35,211 nt of DNA, taken from a virus. Its lineage: Duplodnaviria; Heunggongvirae; Uroviricota; Caudoviricetes. The stretch spans positions 1-35,211 of IMG/VR virus record IMGVR_UViG_2703718792_000017; one strand, 5' to 3'. Positions 1,369 to 15,986 of this stretch are shown here, piece after piece; positions within the stretch are counted from its first letter, which is position 1, and each line of letters opens with the position of its first letter. Position numbers and translations under genes: made by a program. The notes beneath the pieces are model-generated. The model made no database searches and was not told where the DNA came from. It saw nothing but the letters and a program-made list of their open reading frames with translations.

Positions 1369-1444
1369 GCCGATATAGCTCAGTTGGTAGAGCAGCGCAT
1401 TCGTAATGCGAAGGTCGTAGGTTCGACTCCTATTATCGGCACCA
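1369..1444 (+). tRNA. thrW: tRNA-Thr (anticodon CGT), prophage integration target
   Basis: 76-nt sequence GCCGATATAGCTCAGTTGGTAGAGCAGCGCATTCGTAATGCGAAGGTCGTAGGTTCGACTCCTATTATCGGCACCA with cloverleaf features, CGT anticodon loop and encoded CCA; an integrase gene ends 15 bp downstream. Confidence 0.93.
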
Positions 1445-1458
1445 TTTAAATCAATAAG

Positions 1459-2622
1459 TTACACATCATTAGTACCTTCCTTATTTTTTGACTGGGACGA
1501 ATTTGGGACCGATGGGTTCAGGATCGAGTCTATTTGCCGTGCGTGTTCGGTAAGGTGATTAGGTGCAAGGTGAGCATATCGACGAACCATTTCGATAGAC
1601 TCCCAGCCTCCCATTTCCTGTAACACTGACAACGGGACTCCGGCTTGAACCAGCCAACTTGCCCAGGTGTGTCTCAAGTCGTGAAATCTGAAATCATCAA
1701 TGCCAGCCCATCTCAGCGCCGCTTTCCAGGCTGTGTTTGCGTCATACCGCATCTTCCTTACTGTTGGCGCTTTCGTTCCGTCTGGTTTGGTACAGCTTTC
1801 CTTGTACACAAATACCCAACGGTGATGATTCCCGATTTGTTTTTTCAAAACGCGACATGCAGTATCATTCAGCGCAACGCCGATTGCGCGGTTTGATTTA
1901 CTCTCTTCCGGGTTTATCCATGCCACCCGGCGCTGCATATCTATTTGTTGCCATTCAAGGTTGATGATGTTCGAGCGTCTTAAGCCTGTTGCCAGTGCAA
2001 ATTCAACAACAGACTTTAATGGCTCCGGACATTCATCAATCAGCCTTTGTGCTTCATGGGGCTCCAGCCAGCGGATCCGTTTATTCTTTGGTTGAGGCAC
2101 TTTAATAATTGGTGCCTTATCCAGCATTTTCCATTCACGCTCTGCGGCTCTTAGTAGGGCCTTTATAAATGAAAGATGCGTAGCCTTCGTTGCAACGGAC
2201 GCTGGTTTTGGCGTGTATTCTGGAACAGGTTTCCCTTTTTTTCTGCATGCTTCTGCCCTGAGTTTCCAGTTTTCCTCATGACGCCGGTTCGTCATTTTCT
2301 GCATTGCTGAATAAATTTTTGATTCAGTAATGTCTCTTAGTTGCATTCCTGCGAAATGTTGAAGCCAGAATCCGATCCGGCTTTTGTCATCGTCCAGTGA
2401 TTTTTTATGTGCTTTCTCTTCAAGCCACCTGACACACGCTTCCTCGAACGTTATATCAGGTATTTCACCAAGTTTGCTGACCCGCCATGCTTCAGCCTTT
2501 AGCTTGTCATGGAGTTCTGTCGCCTGCCTTTTGTCCTTTGTTCCAAGAGACTGTTTAAATCTTTTACCGTTCGGCAATGTGAAACTGGCGTACCATATTT
2601 CACCTCTGCGGAAGAGTGACAT
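1459..2622 (-). CDS. int: Phage integrase, tyrosine recombinase
   Basis: 387-aa ORF; C-terminal catalytic region with HDLRHTWAS ... VRRYAHL (R-H-R-Y signature); located directly beside the tRNA. Confidence 0.9.
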
Positions 2623-2849
2623 TTTCTTTCCTCTGTTATGCCATCACCCGCGCTCACCTGGACAGTATGCAGCGGAGACTGAAGAGCCGCAATGCAGGCT
2701 TGTCGTGTTGTGAGGTAAGGAGATTTATTCTTAGTGGGATCTTTGCGTGTTGCCTGAAGACGCCCTGTGCGTATCCAGTTAATGGCAGTCGGTCTGGATA
2801 TCTTGAGAAAATGACAGGCCTCATCGAGTGTGAGGCTGTATGGCTCCAT
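2499..2849 (-). CDS. xis: Excisionase-like DNA-binding protein (Xis)
   Basis: Internal Met of ORF 2499..2933 begins [31 protein letters not shown] (winged-helix excisionase-like). ATG at 2847-2849 overlaps the upstream stop (TAATG). The 3' end overlaps int by about 124 nt, so the exact stop is uncertain. Confidence 0.55.
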
Positions 2850-3154
2850 TATTTCACCTCTTGCTGTGACATTGTTGAAAAATGGATACCAGCTCGTTGC
2901 TGCCAGACGATCCAACCGAGAGTCATATCCCATGCCATGTATTCGTTATCGCCGTTTTTTGCTCTCCGACGATCTACTAAGTCACCGAAACGCTTTTCCA
3001 TGAATAATTCATAAGCTTCGCGTTCATCTGGTTCTACTTCCAGAGATAGGAGTGCGATTTCATAAGCACGGCGCTCAATATCGTCTCGCACGTCAAGGCT
3101 GCTGATACGCTCTTTAATTTCTTTAATCAGTTCTTTGTCGGTAAAAGTGGTCAT
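2849..3154 (-). CDS. Hypothetical phage early protein, 101 aa, acidic
   Basis: ORF in the leftward early operon, tightly packed with neighbours; no recognisable domain. Confidence 0.55.
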   Translation of the reverse strand: MTTFTDKELIKEIKERISSLDVRDDIERRAYEIALLSLEVEPDEREAYELFMEKRFGDLVDRRRAKNGDNEYMAWDMTLGWIVWQQRAGIHFSTMSQQEVK

Positions 3155-3516
3155 TATGCTCCAGCCTCCGGTGCTTTTGGCATTACTGCCCAGTGAGTGA
3201 TATTGACGTTTTCAAGGATCCCGACCTGAAATGTCCACTGCCATTCTCCGGTTTCTTTTTGTCCCCAGGTGTACCAGAGAGAACGCCAGCCAATTAGCCA
3301 GCCTTCTCCGTTAGCATCGAATAACAAAACACTTTCATTTGCTGGTGGCAGTTCAGTTGACACTGGTATTACTTTGTTTTCCTGTGCTGCACATTTAGCT
3401 TCAAGCGCATCGAATTTACGCACCAGGTATTCAGCATCTGTTTCATTTACTTTCAGATCTCGCGGTACACATCTCCCACGAAGAAACCCTTCCATTTCGA
3501 AAACATTCATGCGCAT
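3154..3516 (-). CDS. Hypothetical phage early protein, 120 aa, Trp-rich
   Basis: ORF in the leftward early operon, overlaps the upstream gene by 10 nt; no recognisable domain. Confidence 0.55.
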   Translation of the reverse strand: MRMNVFEMEGFLRGRCVPRDLKVNETDAEYLVRKFDALEAKCAAQENKVIPVSTELPPANESVLLFDANGEGWLIGWRSLWYTWGQKETGEWQWTFQVGILENVNITHWAVMPKAPEAGA

Positions 3517-4070
3517 TTGCGTAACTCCGATAACTCGTTAAAGCGTTCCATAAACATCCCGTAGGCATGGCCCGGTGCCAGTGGAATCACGTTGAACATC
3601 TCTGTTGCCGGGATACCTTCCAGTACAGGCCAGAAAGAGCCATCATCAAGCCCGAGATCGCGGCGTTCGGTTGCCAGCATGATGAGATCGGCATATTTCA
3701 CGGGCGTACTCATAACTGGGGGTAACCCGTATTTCTCACGGATTACGGCGTCTATTTTTTCTTCCATTTGTTTATAGTCAGGAAGAAGGCGTTTCAGTGG
3801 TGCGGGAATGTCCTGGCAATACGCTTCTGTTGCATCATGCATTAACGCTTCAAAAGCAAATTCCTGCGGCACCAGCTGGCTGCAAAGAACCGCATGTTGG
3901 GCGACGCTGTAGAAGTGCGAAAGATGACCGGCAAAGCGACAGATATTTGAAAGGGAAACCGCGATATCGTTAATATCGATGTCGTCTTTATTTATCCTGT
4001 CATAATAAAAATGCTTCCCGGAAAAAGTTTTAATAAATGACATTTTGTTCTCCACGTATATGCGCTGCAC
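3507..4070 (-). CDS. yfdR: HD-domain phosphohydrolase, YfdR-like
   Basis: 187 aa; N-terminus MSFIKTFSGKHFYYD and HD-domain metal ligands (GHLSHFYSVAQH ... LMHDATEAY); resembles CPS-53 prophage YfdR. Confidence 0.75.
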   Translation of the reverse strand: MQRIYVENKMSFIKTFSGKHFYYDRINKDDIDINDIAVSLSNICRFAGHLSHFYSVAQHAVLCSQLVPQEFAFEALMHDATEAYCQDIPAPLKRLLPDYKQMEEKIDAVIREKYGLPPVMSTPVKYADLIMLATERRDLGLDDGSFWPVLEGIPATEMFNVIPLAPGHAYGMFMERFNELSELRKCA

Positions 4071-4170
4071 CGCGCTGAATTCTGGTAAAAAGAATCCCTC
4101 ACCATCCGGCGATTATTGAGTAAATTACGTTTCCATAAATGCCCCCGCAGGGGCATTTGCAGTAATGAAA

Positions 4171-4995
4171 TCAGGCGGTGAAAGTACCAATAAAGGTTTC
4201 TACTTTGCTGTCCTTGAATTTCTCAACAAGCAGATCACGAAATTCGTTAGCCATTTCTTCCTGCACCGCCTCCAGCTGAATAATGCGCAGAACCAGTACA
4301 GGACGATCGCCAGTGATAATACTGAGGCGTAATTTAAACGGACGTTCTTTCAGACCTTCAAACGGAACGCATTTAAATTCAAATGCCACTGGCATAATGT
4401 CTTTGGTCTTCGCTTCGACAGACTCCATCAGGGAGCGTTTGCCGCTGAAGTCATTATCTTCAAAATCAGCGGTCTGGTTTGCTTCAATCGTGATTTTACG
4501 GACAGCCGCAGCCGCTTTTGTTGCCTGAATAGCGTCACCATTAGCATCAAAGCCCACAAGATAGTCGGCCCAGTCTTCAATCCATTCTGCCAGTGACTTC
4601 TGGGAGTTACGCTCGCCGTTAACAGACAACAGAGCAGAGAACGGTGCTGTCTTTTTCAGTTTGAGTGTGGCGGTGTTATCTGCGTGACCTGGTTCATCAA
4701 TAGTACCCAGGTTAAGCACACTGACGGCACGCATATTATCAGCATCGATAAAGCAGTGGGTGCCTTCATCTGCAAGATCTTTAGAATAACGGGTAAAGTC
4801 ATCGATGCTGGCAGTGGAAAGCGCACCACGGAAACGGAAGCGATTTAAATTAAATTTTTCCAGATCATGAATGCGGAAATTCTCAGGCAATGCCACAGCA
4901 TCGGCACCAATCTTACTGATAATTTCATTAACACCCTGAGCAGAAATAAGGGCATGGATTTGATTAATTGCGGTTGCGTCTAAGTTCTGAGACAT
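4171..4995 (-). CDS. yfdQ: YfdQ-like protein (DUF2303 family)
   Basis: 274-aa ORF recognised as YfdQ-like; GAGGA ribosome-binding site upstream of the ATG at 4993-4995. Confidence 0.7.
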
Positions 4996-5060
4996 AATAA
5001 GTCCTCACTATATAAAGATATTCAGTGATGAGATAAATAATCAGTTAATTAAAAACGATA

Positions 5061-5423
5061 TTAACGACCTGCTGCGCGGAGTTTTCCGTCAGGTTCACCG
5101 GCAAGAGTCAGTAACTGTCCCTGGTCTTCCTGCAGAATAGTCAGGCGACCACCGCGATTGACATACATCGGCGTTTCGGTAGTGTCTTCTTCGGAAATTT
5201 TCCCGCGGTTAGTCGGGCGAACATATGAGAGTTTGTGTTTGATTTTCACACGGTTCTCATCAAATGGTTCGATTTCCAGGTTGAGTGAGACCTTACCTTT
5301 GGTTTTCGTGTTCATCACACCGGAAGCGACTTCACTGAGAACTGCGCCGATTTTGGTTTCAAATACGCCGCCGTCCAGCTCCCCGATAAATGCCTGCACA
5401 TCAGTACTGCGTTCGCTAGCCAT
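5061..5423 (-). CDS. Hypothetical protein, YfdP-like, 120 aa
   Basis: Internal Met (MASERSTDVQAFIGELDGG...) preceded by GAGGAG 7 nt upstream. The 77-codon upstream extension of the ORF is not protein-like. Confidence 0.6.
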   Translation of the reverse strand: MASERSTDVQAFIGELDGGVFETKIGAVLSEVASGVMNTKTKGKVSLNLEIEPFDENRVKIKHKLSYVRPTNRGKISEEDTTETPMYVNRGGRLTILQEDQGQLLTLAGEPDGKLRAAGR

Positions 5424-6267
5424 TTTGCTGCTCCTCATCATATCGACCCTGCAAGGCCGATTAGTTTCTCCACAAAACAGAGAAGAACACCTGCGGTGGC
5501 TGCCGCCCGGATGGATTGGGTTATGAGCCCGTCGTCCGGTGATGCTCTTCTCTGTTTTGTAAAAAGAGCGGTACCAGCCGGAAGCAAGTGTACAAACTGG
5601 TACCGCCAAAGCAGTGGCTGTTGTGGTGGGGTTGTCACTCAGGCGTATGGTCAACCTGACAATCCGGTGTCCTCAACGGGGAAAGAGTAACCCCGCCATA
5701 CTTACCGCCGCGCCATTTCGCGGATTACCACAACGCTGAGAGCACTTAGCCAGTTACGGCACCACACTTTGTCGCGGCTCCATAAATACCCTCATCGTTG
5801 CACCCTGGTCTCTTCCCAGGCGTCAAACCGGATCGCCACGCTGGTTAGGCGTCTTATCAGCATCATCATTGACTTGCACATTCCGGCTACCTGGTTTGTT
5901 TGCCCGAGCAAGGAGTGGATTGTCCCCTTTAACGTCCCCAGACCGCTAACGACGCATGTGCCATACGCCGTGTTACAATAAAATGTTCGGTATTAGTTAC
6001 CAAAGAGACGATTACTCTTATGGTTGAATGTAATACCCCTGTTGAATATTTTCTTGTGTACTATTTGTTTTTCCTATATAACGAATTGGTTGTTTTGTTT
6101 ACATAATAAGAAGTTTTTTTAAATAAGTTTACATTGTTTTGTCTTGCTATTTTTCAAAATTCAAGAACAATGAATTGTCGCTATCGGTAATTATTCTTTA
6201 TGAAATTTTATAAATAACTCCCTGCTTTTGAGTTTTGTACGCAGTGTTTTTAGTTGTCGAGGACATA

Positions 6268-6477
6268 ATGGATAATCAAAATACTCCTGTTTTTGATGTA
6301 TGTGGTTGGTACTGTGTGCCAGTTAAAGATCATAATTCAGTTATAGTTCAACTGTCCTGCAAACAACCACCATTTGAATCTGATAAAATTATCGAAAGTC
6401 CAATATATTCTTTTCCCATAAAAGAAATACCAAATCTCATAAATACATTACAAAACATTTATGAAGAAAATAATTGA
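6268..6477 (+). CDS. Small AT-rich moron protein of unknown function, 69 aa
   Basis: ATG at 6268 with GAGGA 5 nt upstream; preceded by a very AT-rich promoter-like region and followed by an intrinsic terminator; base composition far below neighbouring phage genes. Confidence 0.55.
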   Translation: MDNQNTPVFDVCGWYCVPVKDHNSVIVQLSCKQPPFESDKIIESPIYSFPIKEIPNLINTLQNIYEENN

Positions 6478-6500
6478 TTATAAATCCAGTTCAAAAGTGA

Positions 6501-6527
6501 AGCGTCCATTTGGGCGCTTTTTTATTT
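6501..6527 (+). terminator. Rho-independent terminator downstream of the small moron gene
   Basis: Hairpin AGCGTCCA-TTT-GGGCGCT followed by TTTTTATTT. Confidence 0.55.
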
Positions 6528-6596
6528 ACGAATCATTCCGGTCTTCGTATGCCCCGGACGGCTACTTCGTGGGCGTCCTGCCTGTTCGATATCTTA

Positions 6597-6619
6597 TGTA
6601 GGTACATTATGTACCTACA
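6597..6619. promoter_or_regulatory. 23-bp perfect palindrome, operator-like site
   Basis: TGTAGGTACAT-T-ATGTACCTACA, followed by a third GGTACAT half-site at 6621-6627; shares the GGTACA half-site with the cI-cro operator. Confidence 0.45.
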
Positions 6620-6636
6620 GGGTACATTGTCAAGTA

Positions 6637-6660
6637 TAAAAAAACCTGCCGAAGCAGGTT
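6637..6660 (-). terminator. Rho-independent terminator of the cI transcript
   Basis: On the minus strand: AACCTGC-TTCG-GCAGGTT hairpin followed by a T7 run, immediately 3' of cI. Confidence 0.65.
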
Positions 6661-6672
6661 CATAGACATTGA

Positions 6673-7347
6673 TCAGGCTTTAATTTTGTATCTTCTTGGT
6701 TTTCCTGAGAAAATAACTGTACCAATGATAGAGCAATTACCGTTTATCTTAATGTAAGGCTCAGGCCAGTTGGGGTTTAATGCTTTGAGATAACGCTGTG
6801 TCCCGTCTTCTATCAACCTTTTGAAGGTGGTTTCACCTGTATCGTGCATCAATGCAATAACGTCATCGCCGTGGCAGGCTGGTACTTCTGGATCGACAAA
6901 AATCATGTCTCCCGGACGGTACTCATCAATCATTGAATCACCAATCACCCTCAATATATAAGTCATTTCGCCACAGGGTACAGGGCAGGGATACGTTTCT
7001 GTTGTGCTCAAATCAACCTCAGAATAGCCAACTTCTTTCCATGCTCCGGCCTGTACCCATGATATGACAGGGACTAACGTTATTTTTTTATTAGTGATTG
7101 AAACATCAGGTTTTTTTGTGATGTTCGTTGTCTGGTGTTCTTGATCAAGCCATCCGACAGGCAGGTCGAAACATTTTTCGATGTGCCGTGCCATGCTGTC
7201 ACCGATATTTTTAGTAGCGCCATCCCCCATAAACCTGCTGGTCTGGGTAGGCTCGCGATCAATCATGGTGGCAAAGGATGAATTTCCGCCAACACCATCT
7301 CTCAGTTTTCTGGCGTTAGACCGCCGGATGTCATGGATTGTTTTCAT
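6673..7347 (-). CDS. CI-like prophage repressor (HTH plus S24 LexA-type peptidase domain)
   Basis: 224 aa; N-terminal HTH, Ala-Gly cleavage site (QAGAW), S24 catalytic Ser in GDSM and Lys in FKRL; divergent from a cro-like gene. Confidence 0.88.
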   Translation of the reverse strand: MKTIHDIRRSNARKLRDGVGGNSSFATMIDREPTQTSRFMGDGATKNIGDSMARHIEKCFDLPVGWLDQEHQTTNITKKPDVSITNKKITLVPVISWVQAGAWKEVGYSEVDLSTTETYPCPVPCGEMTYILRVIGDSMIDEYRPGDMIFVDPEVPACHGDDVIALMHDTGETTFKRLIEDGTQRYLKALNPNWPEPYIKINGNCSIIGTVIFSGKPRRYKIKA

Positions 7348-7363
7348 AACGAAATTAAAACCT

Positions 7364-7382
7364 TTGTACCGATAAGGTACAA
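7364..7382. promoter_or_regulatory. Operator palindrome in the cI-cro divergent promoter region
   Basis: TTGTACC-GATAA-GGTACAA (perfect 7-5-7 inverted repeat) in the 90-bp cI/cro intergenic region; a further AGGTACATG half-site at 7425-7433. Confidence 0.6.
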
Positions 7383-7437
7383 GTATCTTGAAGGTTCATC
7401 TCAATCATGTAGTATGTATACTGGAGGTACATGTTGT

Positions 7438-7638
7438 ATGAAAGCGTATTGGGACTCTTTAACCAAAGAACAGCAGGGCGAGTTGGCCGGAAAAGTTGGC
7501 TCAACACCTGGCTACTTACGGCTGGTTTTCAATGGTTATAAAAAAGCCAGTTTTGTGCTGGCTAAAAAACTTGAGCAATGCACGTCAAGTGCAATTACGA
7601 AATCTGACTTAAGACCGGATATCTATCCGAAAGATTAA
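7438..7638 (+). CDS. Cro-like HTH regulator, 66 aa
   Basis: ATG at 7438 with GGAGG 10 nt upstream; MKAYWDSLTKEQQGELAGKVGSTPGYLRLV has a Cro/CI-type HTH; divergent from cI. Confidence 0.75.
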   Translation: MKAYWDSLTKEQQGELAGKVGSTPGYLRLVFNGYKKASFVLAKKLEQCTSSAITKSDLRPDIYPKD

Positions 7639-8558: not shown

Positions 8559-8644
8559 TTCTGCCATTCCGGGACGTTACACTGTTCAGGCACCTTATAA
8601 AACGGGTGCCGGGCGTGGAAACCCGGAATTCACCAAAGCGCACA

Positions 8645-8668
8645 ACCGCGCTCTTGCGGTTTTTTTGT
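8645..8668 (+). terminator. Putative intrinsic terminator (tR1-like) upstream of rha
   Basis: Short ACCGC-GCTCTT-GCGGT hairpin followed by a T7 run; lies inside the non-coding 5' part of the long ORF 8230..9381. Confidence 0.4.
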
Positions 8669-8835
8669 GTCATGAGCAGCATTACGCCCAAATTATGGTG
8701 GGGCGTGCAGGGCCAACTTCGGTTGGGCCGGGTTCTTTGGTGACCGGTATTTCCACCCCTGTACGTCTCACCACCAATAAGGTCGTGGAAAGCCTTGGTG
8801 GTGAGTTATTAAAAATCACCAAAGAGGCTGCCATC

Positions 8836-13434: not shown

Positions 13435-13451
13435 TTTTGTGGAGAAAGTTG

Positions 13452-13793
13452 ATGCGTGATATGTATGAAGTGATGGATCGTTGGGGGGCTTGGGCTGCTT
13501 CAGACAATAGCGGAGTGGACTGGCAACCGGTAGCCGCTGGCTTCAAGGGGCTTTTACCTCATGGCAAAAAGTCCCGGATTCAGTGTGATGATGACGAAGG
13601 CATTATGATAGACAGTTGTGTGGCTCGGTTGCGTAAATATAGGCCTGAAGAATATGAGCTGATAATCGCACATTTTGTTATTGGGGTTTCGCTCCGTACA
13701 ATTGCAAAGAAGCGGAAATGCTCAGATGGTACGATCAGAAAGGAATTGCAAACTGCTTTAGGTTTTATTGATGGTGTTCTGAGAATGGTTTAA
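13452..13793 (+). CDS. Late-gene antitermination protein Q (QuuD/phage-21-like family)
   Basis: MRDMYEVMDRWGAWAA...WQPVAAGFKGLLP...CDDDEGIMIDSCVARL...CSDGTIRKELQTALGFIDGVL matches the Q antiterminator family; ATG at 13452 with GGAGAAAG upstream. Confidence 0.82.
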   Translation: MRDMYEVMDRWGAWAASDNSGVDWQPVAAGFKGLLPHGKKSRIQCDDDEGIMIDSCVARLRKYRPEEYELIIAHFVIGVSLRTIAKKRKCSDGTIRKELQTALGFIDGVLRMV

Positions 13794-13802
13794 GAGTGCT
13801 AA

Positions 13803-13833
13803 CCCAAGCTTGGATTACTTCCCAAGCTTGGAT
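13803..13833. repeat. Two copies of the 13-mer CCCAAGCTTGGAT, each containing the 10-bp palindrome CCAAGCTTGG
   Basis: Copies at 13803-13815 and 13821-13833, directly 3' of Q and overlapping the stop and last codons of the convergent membrane-protein gene. Confidence 0.6.
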
Positions 13834-14354
13834 AATGCAGATTTTTTACGCTTATTTAATGTTTTTCGTGTTTTTATTAACCCTTCAAAATCAATGACTT
13901 CCTTTACTCCTAGTAAAACAGGGATTAATGAGTATAGTGAAAAAACCAAAGCACAAACAACGAATTTACTTATAGTATGAATGTGCTGTTGAACAAAAGA
14001 GGACTCATTGCCAAGGCTAATCAATGCCACAAAAATTATTATCGAAATTTGTAGCGTAAGCATGAATAATGTTGCCCGGCTTTTTTCTTTAATAAGCCTT
14101 GTTAACCTTCTTTGTTCATTGCGAGATAAATCCTCAGCAACGTTTTTTTGGGTTTCAGATAACTTATGAAACAGGGTTGCGCTACTTGCAATTGGTAAGA
14201 TGAGGATAGTTAATACGCCCCAAGGAATGGATGTTAAAATGATGTACTTATTGGCGATAAACCAGGCTGTAGACATAAGCAATACTACAACAACCAAGTG
14301 GAATGCTCTACTTGGTTGTTGGTAGGATATGCACTTAGCAGCCTCTCTATTCAT
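13815..14354 (-). CDS. Integral membrane protein with 4 predicted TM helices, 179 aa; second gene of the antisense moron operon
   Basis: Hydrophobic segments near residues 19-34, 38-61, 94-114 and 128-150; basic C-terminal tail; start ATG overlaps the upstream gene's stop (ATGAATAG); low GC. Confidence 0.7.
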   Translation of the reverse strand: MNREAAKCISYQQPSRAFHLVVVVLLMSTAWFIANKYIILTSIPWGVLTILILPIASSATLFHKLSETQKNVAEDLSRNEQRRLTRLIKEKSRATLFMLTLQISIIIFVALISLGNESSFVQQHIHTISKFVVCALVFSLYSLIPVLLGVKEVIDFEGLIKTRKTLNKRKKSALSKLGK

Positions 14355-15378
14355 CGGTCTCTTCTATTTCTCCATTGTTGATCAGAGCGACCATCCAATC
14401 ATGCATTTGGCCATATAGTTCATGTTCATCAATTAAGCTATTGTAAGTTGTGAGTTTAACAGTATTCCATAAACGAATCTCTTTACCAGTTAAACGCGTC
14501 CCACCAACCATTTCAACAACGACGTCATCATCCGGGTAGTGTCTGGTAGCGTCAACAAGATTTCTTAACATCCTTTCTCCTGAATCAGAAGTTTTCCTCT
14601 TGTATGTGATTTTCAGCGTTACTTCAAGATTAGCGTCATCAAGACAATCTTCAAGCTTGCTACTACGTAAGAAGCTTTCCCATTTCTCTGCTAACATAGC
14701 TTTAAGGAGTTCAGAGGCAGTTCCTGCGGGAACCCAGCCTGGGCTTTTGCTTCCTTGACTAAATTCGTTAACGGCAGTTACAGGGGCACCTATAGAAACT
14801 GATTTTACAGGTCGTTTTAGAACTTCCTCAATGATCTCTTCTTTGGGCTTATCGGAAACTTTTAAGATGTTTTCTGCGCCTAAGTAATTGCTTAAAGAGC
14901 CAAGTAACCATTTCAGATGTGTTTCAAGTTCTCTTGTTGTAAGAGATCTGGATTGCATTACTACGATGCTGTTACCAAATACACCGAAATAAAGAATTGA
15001 ATCTATAAACTCACGCACAACCTGTTCCCTCTCTGTGCGTGCTTCTTCAGCTTCTTCAACAGTCATTTTAGAAAGTTCATCTGATGTTACGGATCTTATT
15101 TCATAAGATTCAGCATCATTTTTAAGCTGTATATAGCGTTGAGAATGGCCTGGTTCGAAGGCAACAAGCTGGCAAAACAGCATTCCCTGGAACTCTTCAT
15201 GTTTATTAATTAATCGGAATAAGTCTTCCTCTCCTGGGTTGACCATTTCCTTGCGAGAATCTGCTTTAGTGTGTTTTTTGAGCAGCTCCATTAGCATCGA
15301 CTGGAGCGTCTTTGACACACCTGACATTGTGACTTCTTTATAGATTATTTTTTTAGTTTTGATTTCACGCTTGCTCAT
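14347..15378 (-). CDS. Soluble protein of unknown function, 343 aa; first gene of the antisense moron operon
   Basis: Start taken as the ATG giving MSKREIK (upstream in-frame starts are TTG or too close to the predicted promoter); no recognised domain; low GC; translationally coupled to the downstream membrane protein. Confidence 0.7.
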   Translation of the reverse strand: MSKREIKTKKIIYKEVTMSGVSKTLQSMLMELLKKHTKADSRKEMVNPGEEDLFRLINKHEEFQGMLFCQLVAFEPGHSQRYIQLKNDAESYEIRSVTSDELSKMTVEEAEEARTEREQVVREFIDSILYFGVFGNSIVVMQSRSLTTRELETHLKWLLGSLSNYLGAENILKVSDKPKEEIIEEVLKRPVKSVSIGAPVTAVNEFSQGSKSPGWVPAGTASELLKAMLAEKWESFLRSSKLEDCLDDANLEVTLKITYKRKTSDSGERMLRNLVDATRHYPDDDVVVEMVGGTRLTGKEIRLWNTVKLTTYNSLIDEHELYGQMHDWMVALINNGEIEETDE

Positions 15379-15411
15379 CTTATTTTTCCATAAATACATA
15401 GGATTAAGCTG

Positions 15412-15440
15412 AATATACAAAAGCGCTAACGCGTACGCAA
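15412..15440 (-). promoter_or_regulatory. Putative sigma70 promoter of the antisense moron operon
   Basis: On the minus strand: -35 TTGCGT, 17-bp spacer, -10 TATATT, about 35 nt upstream of the ATG. Confidence 0.4.
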
Positions 15441-15485
15441 AAATTATTGTATCGTGTTAAGAGTGGTTACTTCGCCACACAGCTT

Positions 15486-15515
15486 AAACCCGCCATTGAG
15501 CGGGTTTTGTCGTTT
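15486..15515 (+). terminator. Intrinsic terminator upstream of the holin, possible tR' analogue
   Basis: AAACCCGC-CATTGA-GCGGGTTT hairpin followed by TTTTGTCGTTT on the plus strand. Confidence 0.5.
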
Positions 15516-15659
15516 CTGGGCCTTGGTATTCGTTGGGCTTGGTCTATCTAGTACTTATCCATTGGCTCGGCTTCTTTTACGTTTCCGCTTCTGATTTGCG
15601 GTTCGTGGTACTCCCTCAATTTGCACCTCCTGTATCGGCGAGGTGAGAGATAACTACAA

Positions 15660-15986
15660 ATGCCTCATAACCCAAATACCTGGCTGGAGTTGGTCCAGAG
15701 CTGGTGGCGTGGAGACACACCGCTGGGCGCAGTGATTATGTCGATCGTTATGGCTGGCTTGCGCATTGCCTATTTTGGCGGTGGTGGTGGCTGGAAGCGA
15801 AAAACGCTCGAGATTTTGCTCTGTGGCGCTTTGACGCTGACCTTTGCATCCGCTCTTGAGTATGTCGGATGGCCTAAATCGCTTTCTGTAGCCATTGGTG
15901 GCGGTGTTGGGCTGATCGGTGTCGATGCTATTCGTGGGGCTGCAATGCGAGTAATCGGTAACAAATTTGGTAGCACGAAGGAGTAA
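15660..15986 (+). CDS. Holin, lambda S family
   Basis: 108 aa with 3 TM segments and a charged C-terminus; alignable by eye to lambda S (..AYLRGRYNGGAF.. versus ..LRIAYFGGGGGW..; IGTDSIGSLIKRFAAKKAG versus IGVDAIRGAAMRVIGNKFG). Confidence 0.82.
   Translation: MPHNPNTWLELVQSWWRGDTPLGAVIMSIVMAGLRIAYFGGGGGWKRKTLEILLCGALTLTFASALEYVGWPKSLSVAIGGGVGLIGVDAIRGAAMRVIGNKFGSTKE

Follow-up and report, generated by a model that had tools for sequence, protein, structure and literature searches.

A prophage cargo gene pair between Q and the holin gene as a candidate RexAB-type phage-exclusion module

Two genes that lie antisense to the late genes, between the antiterminator gene Q and the holin gene, raise the question of what they do for the phage or its host in the Caudoviricetes genome of IMG/VR record IMGVR_UViG_2703718792_000017. 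The window analyzed here is the whole stretch of 35,211 nucleotides (nt), from an Escherichia coli prophage, and all coordinates are window positions unless a locus is named. The initial annotation of the window, made without database searches, had likened the two genes (A and B) to the RexA/RexB abortive-infection module of phage lambda. Our analysis supports this likeness computationally through the gene structure, purifying selection, and obligate pairing of the two genes, the fold likeness of A to RexA, the topology and conservation of B, and cargo positions found only in prophages, whereas similarity at the sequence level is absent. We consider it fairly probable that A-B is a prophage RexAB-type two-component phage-exclusion (abortive infection) module that forms a sequence family distinct from lambda RexA and RexB. 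The assignment to this class follows from agreement with Rex systems in fold, topology, pairing, and prophage-cargo position, and it is made despite the failure of every comparison with RexA and RexB at the sequence level.

Both open reading frames (ORFs) were confirmed on the minus strand where the initial annotation had placed them. Gene A (14347-15378) encodes a soluble acidic protein of 343 amino acids (aa) (39.2 kDa; isoelectric point [pI], 5.3), the proposed infection sensor or activator, and gene B (13815-14354) encodes a basic membrane protein of 179 aa with four transmembrane (TM) segments (20.2 kDa; pI, 10.2), the proposed membrane effector and RexB analogue. The open frame of A extends to a TTG at 15420, but the N termini of the homologues line up with the ATG, and A is therefore taken as 343 aa. 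The two genes share 8 nt (ATGAATAG, 14347-14354, minus strand), such that the stop codon of A lies within the start region of B. This overlap, which had been noticed at the outset, implies probable translational coupling and a fixed stoichiometry, and a tight spacing is kept in all 25 loci compared. The AT richness reported earlier also holds, with a GC content of 0.385 for the module (A, 0.398; B, 0.357) versus 0.517 for the window and 0.52 to 0.54 for the flanks, which makes the module the lowest-GC 1.56-kb stretch in the entire window. The ratios of nonsynonymous to synonymous substitution (dN/dS) against the Phytobacter, Pantoea, Serratia, and Providencia orthologues are 0.04 to 0.06 for A and 0.07 to 0.39 for B, and the synonymous sites of A are saturated across these orthologues (dS of at least 2). 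Because dN/dS is low and many genera have full-length homologues, A and B are real genes under purifying selection.

The distribution of the pair was assessed in species-representative genomes and phage records, and related loci were searched for with a 25-sequence alignment. A word-indexed search recovered 28 A clusters and 15 B clusters, and an exhaustive hidden Markov model (HMM) search with the A alignment recovered 727 clusters at 50% identity (E ≤ 1e-3), 233 of them at E ≤ 1e-30. Within the Enterobacterales, the A family occurs in Phytobacter, Erwinia, Pantoea, Serratia, Enterobacter, Franconibacter, Xenorhabdus, Proteus, Providencia, Morganella, Rosenbergiella, and Acerihabitans. Beyond this order, it was found in Pseudomonas, Marinobacter, Oceanospirillum, Chromohalobacter, Microbulbifer, and metagenome-assembled genomes (MAGs) of a Methylococcaceae member and of Ureibacillus, while the phage records with a member are those of five Acinetobacter phages, Escherichia phage Perceval, and Shigella phage SfIV. 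Near-identical copies of the whole module are present in 14 of 5,426 complete Escherichia coli genomes. The module is carried by the Stx2a-converting phages Stx2a_1447 and Stx2a_WGPS2 of O157:H7, where it sits behind the same Q allele with the methylase/tRNA/stx2 region downstream of it. A 4.8-kb contig of an "Actinomycetes" MAG (locus L022, positions 284-1877) also encodes a B partner, which is near-identical to the Franconibacter partner (locus L003); this contig probably represents enterobacterial phage DNA that was placed in the wrong bin and is not evidence for actinobacterial spread.

Across this diversity, the two genes are inseparable. An ORF of 161 to 225 aa with four hydrophobic segments stands 3′ of A in all 25 loci, at A identities down to 32%, with a spacing that varies between 32 nt of overlap and a gap of 31 nt. 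Profile alignment with hhalign connects B to distant partners at 97.6% and 88.8% probability. The pairwise divergences of A and B co-vary (r = 0.89; 0 of 2,000 permutations in a Mantel test), which indicates that A and B travel together and do not exchange partners. As in Rex-like systems, the two genes lie side by side in the same orientation and are inherited together on temperate phages or prophages, and phage genes were present in every context inspected.

A structure search had been proposed in the initial annotation as a check on both proteins, and its outcome differed between them. For A, the structural model predicts a RexA/RdgC-like two-domain fold, with a split globular domain and an inserted beta-sheet/helix domain; the fold searches covered BFVD. 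RdgC (PDB 2OWL), a recombination-associated DNA-binding protein that stands alone in chromosomes and phages without a membrane partner, is a much weaker fold match to the A model than RexA. For B, the fold search gave no significant match. The most conserved block of A comprises residues 142 to 157 (QSRSLTTRELETHLKW; 14908-14955, minus strand), in which E152 is kept in 137 and W157 in 134 of 140 relatives.

The four TM segments and basic tail that had been read from the sequence of B stood up to closer analysis. Four hydropathy peaks (residues 17-35, 38-56, 96-114, and 132-150) separate the basic residues into 3, 9, and 10 lysines and arginines on the N terminus, central loop, and C-terminal tail, respectively, and none on either of the remaining two loops. 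With all basic charge on these three parts, B is predicted to be a four-TM protein with both termini in the cytoplasm, as expected of a Rex-like membrane partner; the same topology has been reported for RexB, Sbash gp31, and RexBpp. The AlphaFold2 model of B places helices at residues 16-37, 46-72, 78-114, and 125-178. Conservation among the 25 partners is concentrated on the predicted cytoplasmic face. The TM2-TM3 loop (residues 63-94; 14073-14168, minus strand) contains K64, E80, R82, R83, L84, and K91 as family-wide residues, and the basic C-terminal helix (residues 151-179; 13818-13904, minus strand) has conserved E152, F156, R163, K168, and L174, while P44, W45, and P54 are also conserved at the periplasmic turn. 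The only well-conserved region of Sbash gp31 is likewise its central cytoplasmic loop, where R70A or D73A abolishes defense (PMC6426596). By analogy with these defense-losing mutants, the cytoplasmic position of the conserved B residues would favor a Rex-type role, and we propose the TM2-TM3 loop as a putative contact site with A.

Several results weigh against this assignment. Neither Pfam, NCBIfam, nor PADLOC returned anything credible for A or B, in agreement with the earlier statement that no domain could be assigned to A; there was no Pfam or PADLOC match of A to RexA at E ≤ 1, and none of the 140 A-family members matched Pfam RexA. The PADLOC run, which answers the suggestion of a defense-HMM search made with the initial annotation, matched neither protein, its Rex models included. 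With hhalign, the comparison of an A profile of 140 sequences with a RexA profile of 28 sequences reached a probability of 0.5%, and that of B with lambda RexB reached 1.3%; the A-family HMM did not recover 8TWQ, the RexA structure, from the PDB sequences. These negatives are meaningful because the lambda RexA and RexB controls score strongly (1e-97 and 9e-92 in Pfam; 9e-110 and 9e-61 in PADLOC). The model of A has moderate confidence, with a predicted local distance difference test (pLDDT) score of 72 that falls to 49 to 66 in the central domain, and the best E value in the fold search with B was 0.03. The pI of A is 5.3, versus 8.6 for lambda RexA, and the non-specific DNA binding of the RexA homodimer may not be shared by so acidic a protein. 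Small four-TM proteins are common, and inference from position is circumstantial. Sequence-level homology to RexA or RexB was rejected after single-sequence-versus-profile, profile-profile, family HMM, Pfam, and PADLOC searches, and the relationship between A and RexA is thus visible at the level of predicted fold only. A 165-aa Sbash protein ranked fourth in the B fold search (TM-scores of 0.56 and 0.60; E = 0.39) and is not confirmed to be gp31. Elsewhere, the only PHROG matches are phrog_3482 and phrog_16807, both of unknown function; both genes are annotated as hypothetical in every public record, and the accessions and PHROG numbers of the A and B proteins are not mentioned in the literature searched.

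Compared with lambda, the pair differs in size, sequence, and position. Lambda RexA (PF15969, PADLOC PDLC02339, PDB 8TWQ) has 279 aa versus 343 aa for A, with no detectable sequence similarity, and RexB (PF15968, PADLOC PDLC02340) has 144 aa versus 179 aa, being 35 residues shorter. RexB ends four residues past its last hydrophobic segment and has no counterpart to the basic C-terminal helix of B. Lambda rexAB lies in the immunity region, whereas the pair of the window, with its 8-nt overlap, lies in the Q-holin slot on the strand opposite to the late genes. The actinobacteriophage pairs Sbash gp30/gp31, CarolAnn gp44/gp43, and Butters gp30/gp31 share with A-B the combination of a cytosolic RexA-like protein and a small four-TM protein, and they are prophage-expressed and act in heterotypic defense. 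Sbash gp31 and B also agree in having the same TM2-TM3 cytoplasmic loop as their most conserved part. These pairs have no sequence similarity to A-B, and Sbash gp30 has a DUF4747 domain that the A family does not match.

A closer positional parallel is the PADLOC candidate system PDC-M53 of Shigella phage SfII (SfII_50/SfII_49), which has the same architecture, a 340-aa soluble protein and a 194-aa multi-TM protein, in the same antisense slot. The PADLOC models of PDC-M53 matched neither A nor B, the hhalign probability of the A profile against SfII_50 was 1.4%, and single-sequence hhalign gave no support for PDC-M53A as a bridge between RexA and the A family. Searches of IMG/VR and GenBank phages for relatives of PDC-M53A returned identical SfII-type copies only. 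A report on Pseudomonas putida prophage P1 presents RexABpp (PP_5643/PP_5644) as experimentally validated, ties RexApp to RexA by HHpred at 98%, a kind of sequence link that the A family does not show, and describes growth arrest upon RexApp overexpression as RexBpp-dependent (PMC12894663). From the primers in its supplement, RexApp starts with HRTATFV and RexBpp ends with LYYLGYKLQE; some of the primer strings disagree with one another near the 3′ end of rexApp, possibly through transcription errors. No collected A or B family member matched these primer-derived termini, a comparison made from the termini alone, and 25-mers derived from the primers (with the native GTG start) had zero matches in IMG/VR and the JGI metagenomes. 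In contrast, SfII_49 (PDC-M53B; locus L029, positions 845-1429) ends with GLYYLGNRIHMNY and has LYYLG in common with the RexBpp tail, and the sizes and N-terminal fragments are also compatible. As far as these primer-derived termini, sizes, and fragments go, they suggest that RexABpp may be a member of PDC-M53. In that case, the A-B family would be a separate lineage, and two unrelated Rex-type pairs would alternate in one slot.

From these comparisons, a working model of a RexAB-type A-B module can be drawn, in which expression in the lysogen, contact between A and B, channel activity, the defense phenotype, and the trigger are what we infer. In the Rex-like class (PMC12894663; PMC11077077), exclusion of heterologous phages depends on both genes, and the membrane protein, once triggered, brings about depolarization or growth arrest. 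In the lysogen, the pair would be transcribed leftward from its own promoter, outside and antisense to the Q-dependent late operon, and translational coupling would set the A:B ratio. A, cytoplasmic and probably a dimer with a RexA/RdgC-like fold, would sense an infection-specific cue, either a phage protein or a nucleoprotein intermediate of replication or recombination. Activated A would then engage the cytoplasmic face of B at E80, R82, R83, and L84 of the TM2-TM3 loop and at the basic C-terminal helix. B, probably an oligomeric four-TM protein of the inner membrane, would open or perturb the membrane, and the loss of membrane potential and ATP would arrest the cell and abort the infection. 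A bolder version, which we put forward tentatively and regard as rather unlikely, is that A-B founds a large Rex-type branch (>700 clusters at 50% identity) that is mechanistically unlike lambda Rex. Here an acidic A would sense a protein trigger instead of DNA, and it would use the invariant E80/RR82-83 loop and the additional basic C-terminal helix of B to gate an oligomeric B channel.

Some 70 years after the rII experiments of Benzer, the step by which RexA switches RexB on still awaits an explanation. If the proposal is true, this deep and always-paired family could make the question of RexA-like/RexB-like activation testable by co-evolution analysis and complex prediction, and its presence in Stx2a-converting phages of O157:H7 would give it a part in the competition between phages in that pathogen. 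As counted in a 2026 report, descriptions exist for just five RexAB-like systems (PMC12894663). The A-B pair would be a sixth Rex-like lineage, not recognizable by sequence and widespread in Gammaproteobacteria. Missed by Pfam, NCBIfam, and PADLOC, the family is a blind spot of defense-system censuses, and its occurrence in E. coli gives access to the best genetics and phage panels.

The positions of the pair in other genomes bear on an alternative, in which a Rex-fold pair serves no defense and A modulates the lysis-lysogeny switch, recombination, or replication of the prophage while B tethers or regulates A. Two slots recur. The first lies antisense between Q and the holin gene; the pair occupies it in this window and in the Stx2a phages, Pantoea, Serratia, Franconibacter, and SfIV, whose backbones differ in holin family. 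The second, directly 3′ of a CI-type repressor gene, on the same strand and ahead of the early-left genes, holds the pair in three Providencia prophages, in Acinetobacter phage phi1_092021, and, with some probability, in Proteus; it is the position of rexA-rexB in lambda. In Microbulbifer the pair adjoins a repressor/cro pair, and in Xenorhabdus it lies at the edge of a tail-gene cluster. The pair is thus CI-adjacent in Providencia, phi1_092021, and Microbulbifer, whereas this window has it between Q and holin, with cI at 6673-7347; Sbash, Butters, and Rubeelu likewise deviate from CI-adjacent placement, which Rex-like systems typically but not universally show. For a switch modulator, the CI-adjacent position of the copies in Providencia, Acinetobacter, and Microbulbifer would be suitable. 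RexA biases the bistable switch of lambda without needing RexB (PMC11077077), and RdgC, the other fold relative, is associated with recombination. In Escherichia, Pantoea, Serratia, and Franconibacter, however, a long distance separates the pair from the immunity region, and unrelated cargo alternates with it in the slot. The copy at the Xenorhabdus tail-gene cluster fits a switch modulator poorly as well, and the strict co-inheritance of B is at odds with a switch role that needs no RexB. Moreover, the pair is dispensable for the phage cycle, since only the 14 E. coli genomes noted above carry it and related phages hold other cargo in the slot. We regard a purely non-defense role as unlikely.

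In phi1_092021 (locus L046, positions 4001-5508), one small ORF lies between the repressor gene and the pair, and the depositors labeled its A homologue (33% identity) "DefenseFinder protein" with no system named.

The alternation of cargo is seen directly in relatives of the phage. In SfII (locus L029, positions 845-2459), the antisense pair of 340-aa and 194-aa multi-TM proteins in the slot matches PADLOC candidate PDC-M53A/B (2e-32 and 3e-54), and in E. coli PSUO2 (locus L028, positions 1103-2969) the antisense cargo is a trio of genes for a protein of 363 aa, a STAS-like DUF4325 protein, and a single-TM protein of 153 aa that has no PADLOC match. Because relatives hold different antisense cargo there, the slot between Q and the late-promoter segment, at 13794-15420 in the window, is a point of cargo exchange that includes defense candidates, and in P27/SfII-like lambdoid phages it is a useful place to seek further systems.

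Two disrupted copies bear on a reversed logic, in which A is a toxic antiviral effector that B sequesters and silences until infection. Butters gp30/gp31 is a Rex-like pair with such reversed roles as described (PMC12894663), and a coupled pair is equally compatible with this arrangement. In SfIV (locus L047, positions 3501-4324), IS1 truncates B at 108 aa, after TM3, and leaves A intact, while in E. coli OkiPb01677 (locus L048, positions 2248-4617), ISVsa5 splits A into pieces of 223 aa and 122 aa and leaves B intact. These anecdotal cases, one of each kind, fit a pair in which neither protein is harmful alone, as in lambda Rex, and argue weakly against a toxin-antitoxin or Butters-type dependency. 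If A were toxic, the SfIV copy, whose B has lost TM4 and the conserved C-terminal helix, should be deleterious, although SfIV is a single case and its A is possibly inactive. No nuclease or other toxic domain was detectable in A by profile searches, including a Pfam scan of 140 members. Together, these points leave the reversed logic quite unlikely.

A simpler exclusion at the membrane, similar to that of Sie/Imm proteins, would have B stop DNA entry with A as an accessory and without any abortive step. Small multi-TM prophage proteins often block injection, the pair stands next to sieB in the Providencia prophages, and prophage cargo positions suit any exclusion function. To our knowledge, known Sie/Imm proteins need no 343-aa cytoplasmic partner of RexA fold, and the conserved residues of B are predicted to face the cytoplasm, not the periplasm, which argues for intracellular signaling. 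A pure entry block is accordingly a very unlikely role for B.

A role in lysis timing, as an antiholin- or holin-like membrane protein with a regulator, is suggested by the neighboring holin gene and by the small multi-TM nature of B. The pair is on the opposite strand, however, and upstream of the late-promoter/terminator segment; elsewhere it lies next to cI or tail genes, far from lysis genes, and in related phages whose lysis genes are the same, the pair is missing or the slot is taken by other cargo, so that such a role is highly improbable.

The initial annotation had also pointed to RELETH (A residues 149-154) as compatible with the catalytic Rx4H motif of a HEPN RNase. This string is kept among relatives at ≥36% identity, but it is not family-wide (R149 is Arg in 79 of 140 relatives; H154 is His in 97 and Tyr in 43), and with a His that is not invariant and a predicted alpha/beta fold instead of the all-alpha HEPN fold, the RNase reading has next to no probability and was rejected.

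The flanking backbone marks where the cargo begins and ends. The left edge of the slot is the antiterminator gene Q (13437-13793, plus strand), annotated as Q in 99%-identical records, which is convergent with B across a 21-nt spacer between the two stop codons. On the right, the holin gene (15660-15986) is followed by the lysozyme and Rz genes, all on the plus strand. A backbone segment at about 15411-15650 is common to >1,000 E. coli genomes, SfII, SfIV, and phiP27, and the Stx2a phages have sequence in common with the window as far as 15508. An intrinsic terminator with an 8-bp stem, five GC pairs, and a T-run (15486-15507, plus strand) forms the right edge of the slot. The element at 15421-15508 (plus strand), which consists of the GCGTACGC palindrome, the AAGAGTGGTTAC block, and this strong terminator, is common to phages with different cargo. 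It is probably the Q-dependent late promoter with a short leader RNA and tR′, an assignment of pR′/tR′ that is inferred. As the segment at about 15411-15650 appears to be the late promoter/terminator region, the module would lie upstream of it and not within the late operon. This refines the position between Q and holin that the initial annotation gave, which otherwise stands.

Upstream of A, the hexamers TTGCGT (-35; 15440-15435) and TATATT (-10; 15417-15412) are indeed present with a 17-nt spacer, as a candidate sigma-70 promoter (15412-15440, minus strand), but they match only 8 of 12 consensus positions, with 3 of 6 in the -35. With so few matches they fall under the threshold of the consensus promoter scan, which did not report them. 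The 5′ leader of A (15379-15411, minus strand), with a weak Shine-Dalgarno sequence (TGGAAAAATAAG) ahead of the ATG, is kept in three genera, and both hexamers and a 64-nt leader are near-identical 5′ of A in Escherichia, Phytobacter, and Pantoea despite the saturated dS. The candidate -35 falls inside the GCGTACGC palindrome, which phages with other cargo have too, and the conservation of hexamers and leader may reflect constraint from a promoter of the backbone itself. If this -35 is real, the promoter of the module and the late promoter would be divergent and overlapping. A universal promoter that moves with the module was not found; the upstream DNA is conserved only among loci in the Q-holin slot.

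At the other end of the module, a 13-nt direct repeat, CCCAAGCTTGGAT, which includes the 10-bp palindrome CCAAGCTTGG, is found at 13803-13815 and 13821-13833. The first copy lies in the 21-nt spacer between the Q and B stop codons and the second within the last codons of B (KLGK), and the repeat may be a recombination-junction scar of the cargo insertion.

Further features were observed elsewhere in the window and in its relatives. Immediately downstream of the gene for the CI-type repressor (6673-7347, minus strand), in the "rex slot" of this prophage itself, is a second low-GC island (<0.42) at 5655-6672. No ORF in it reaches 90 aa, and the longest one, which is on the opposite strand, has 80 aa; the island represents either cargo that has decayed or a non-coding element. 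Rfam matches at gathering score identify the Hfq-binding RNA isrK and the C4 antisense RNA, a P1/P7-type antirepressor control element, at 8590-8666 and 8691-8778 (plus strand), upstream of an antirepressor-like ORF. A tRNA gene at 1369-1441 (plus strand), near the left end of the window, is a possible attachment site. In the Franconibacter and Pantoea prophages, genes resembling Acb2 and the Tad1 hairpin (anti-CBASS/anti-Thoeris sponge-like) are located near the lysis cassette, and a HicB-like antitoxin gene adjoins the A-B pair in Franconibacter; the coordinates of this lysis-region cargo are 4028-4321 and 7075-7482 in locus L003 and 4741-5007 in locus L031.

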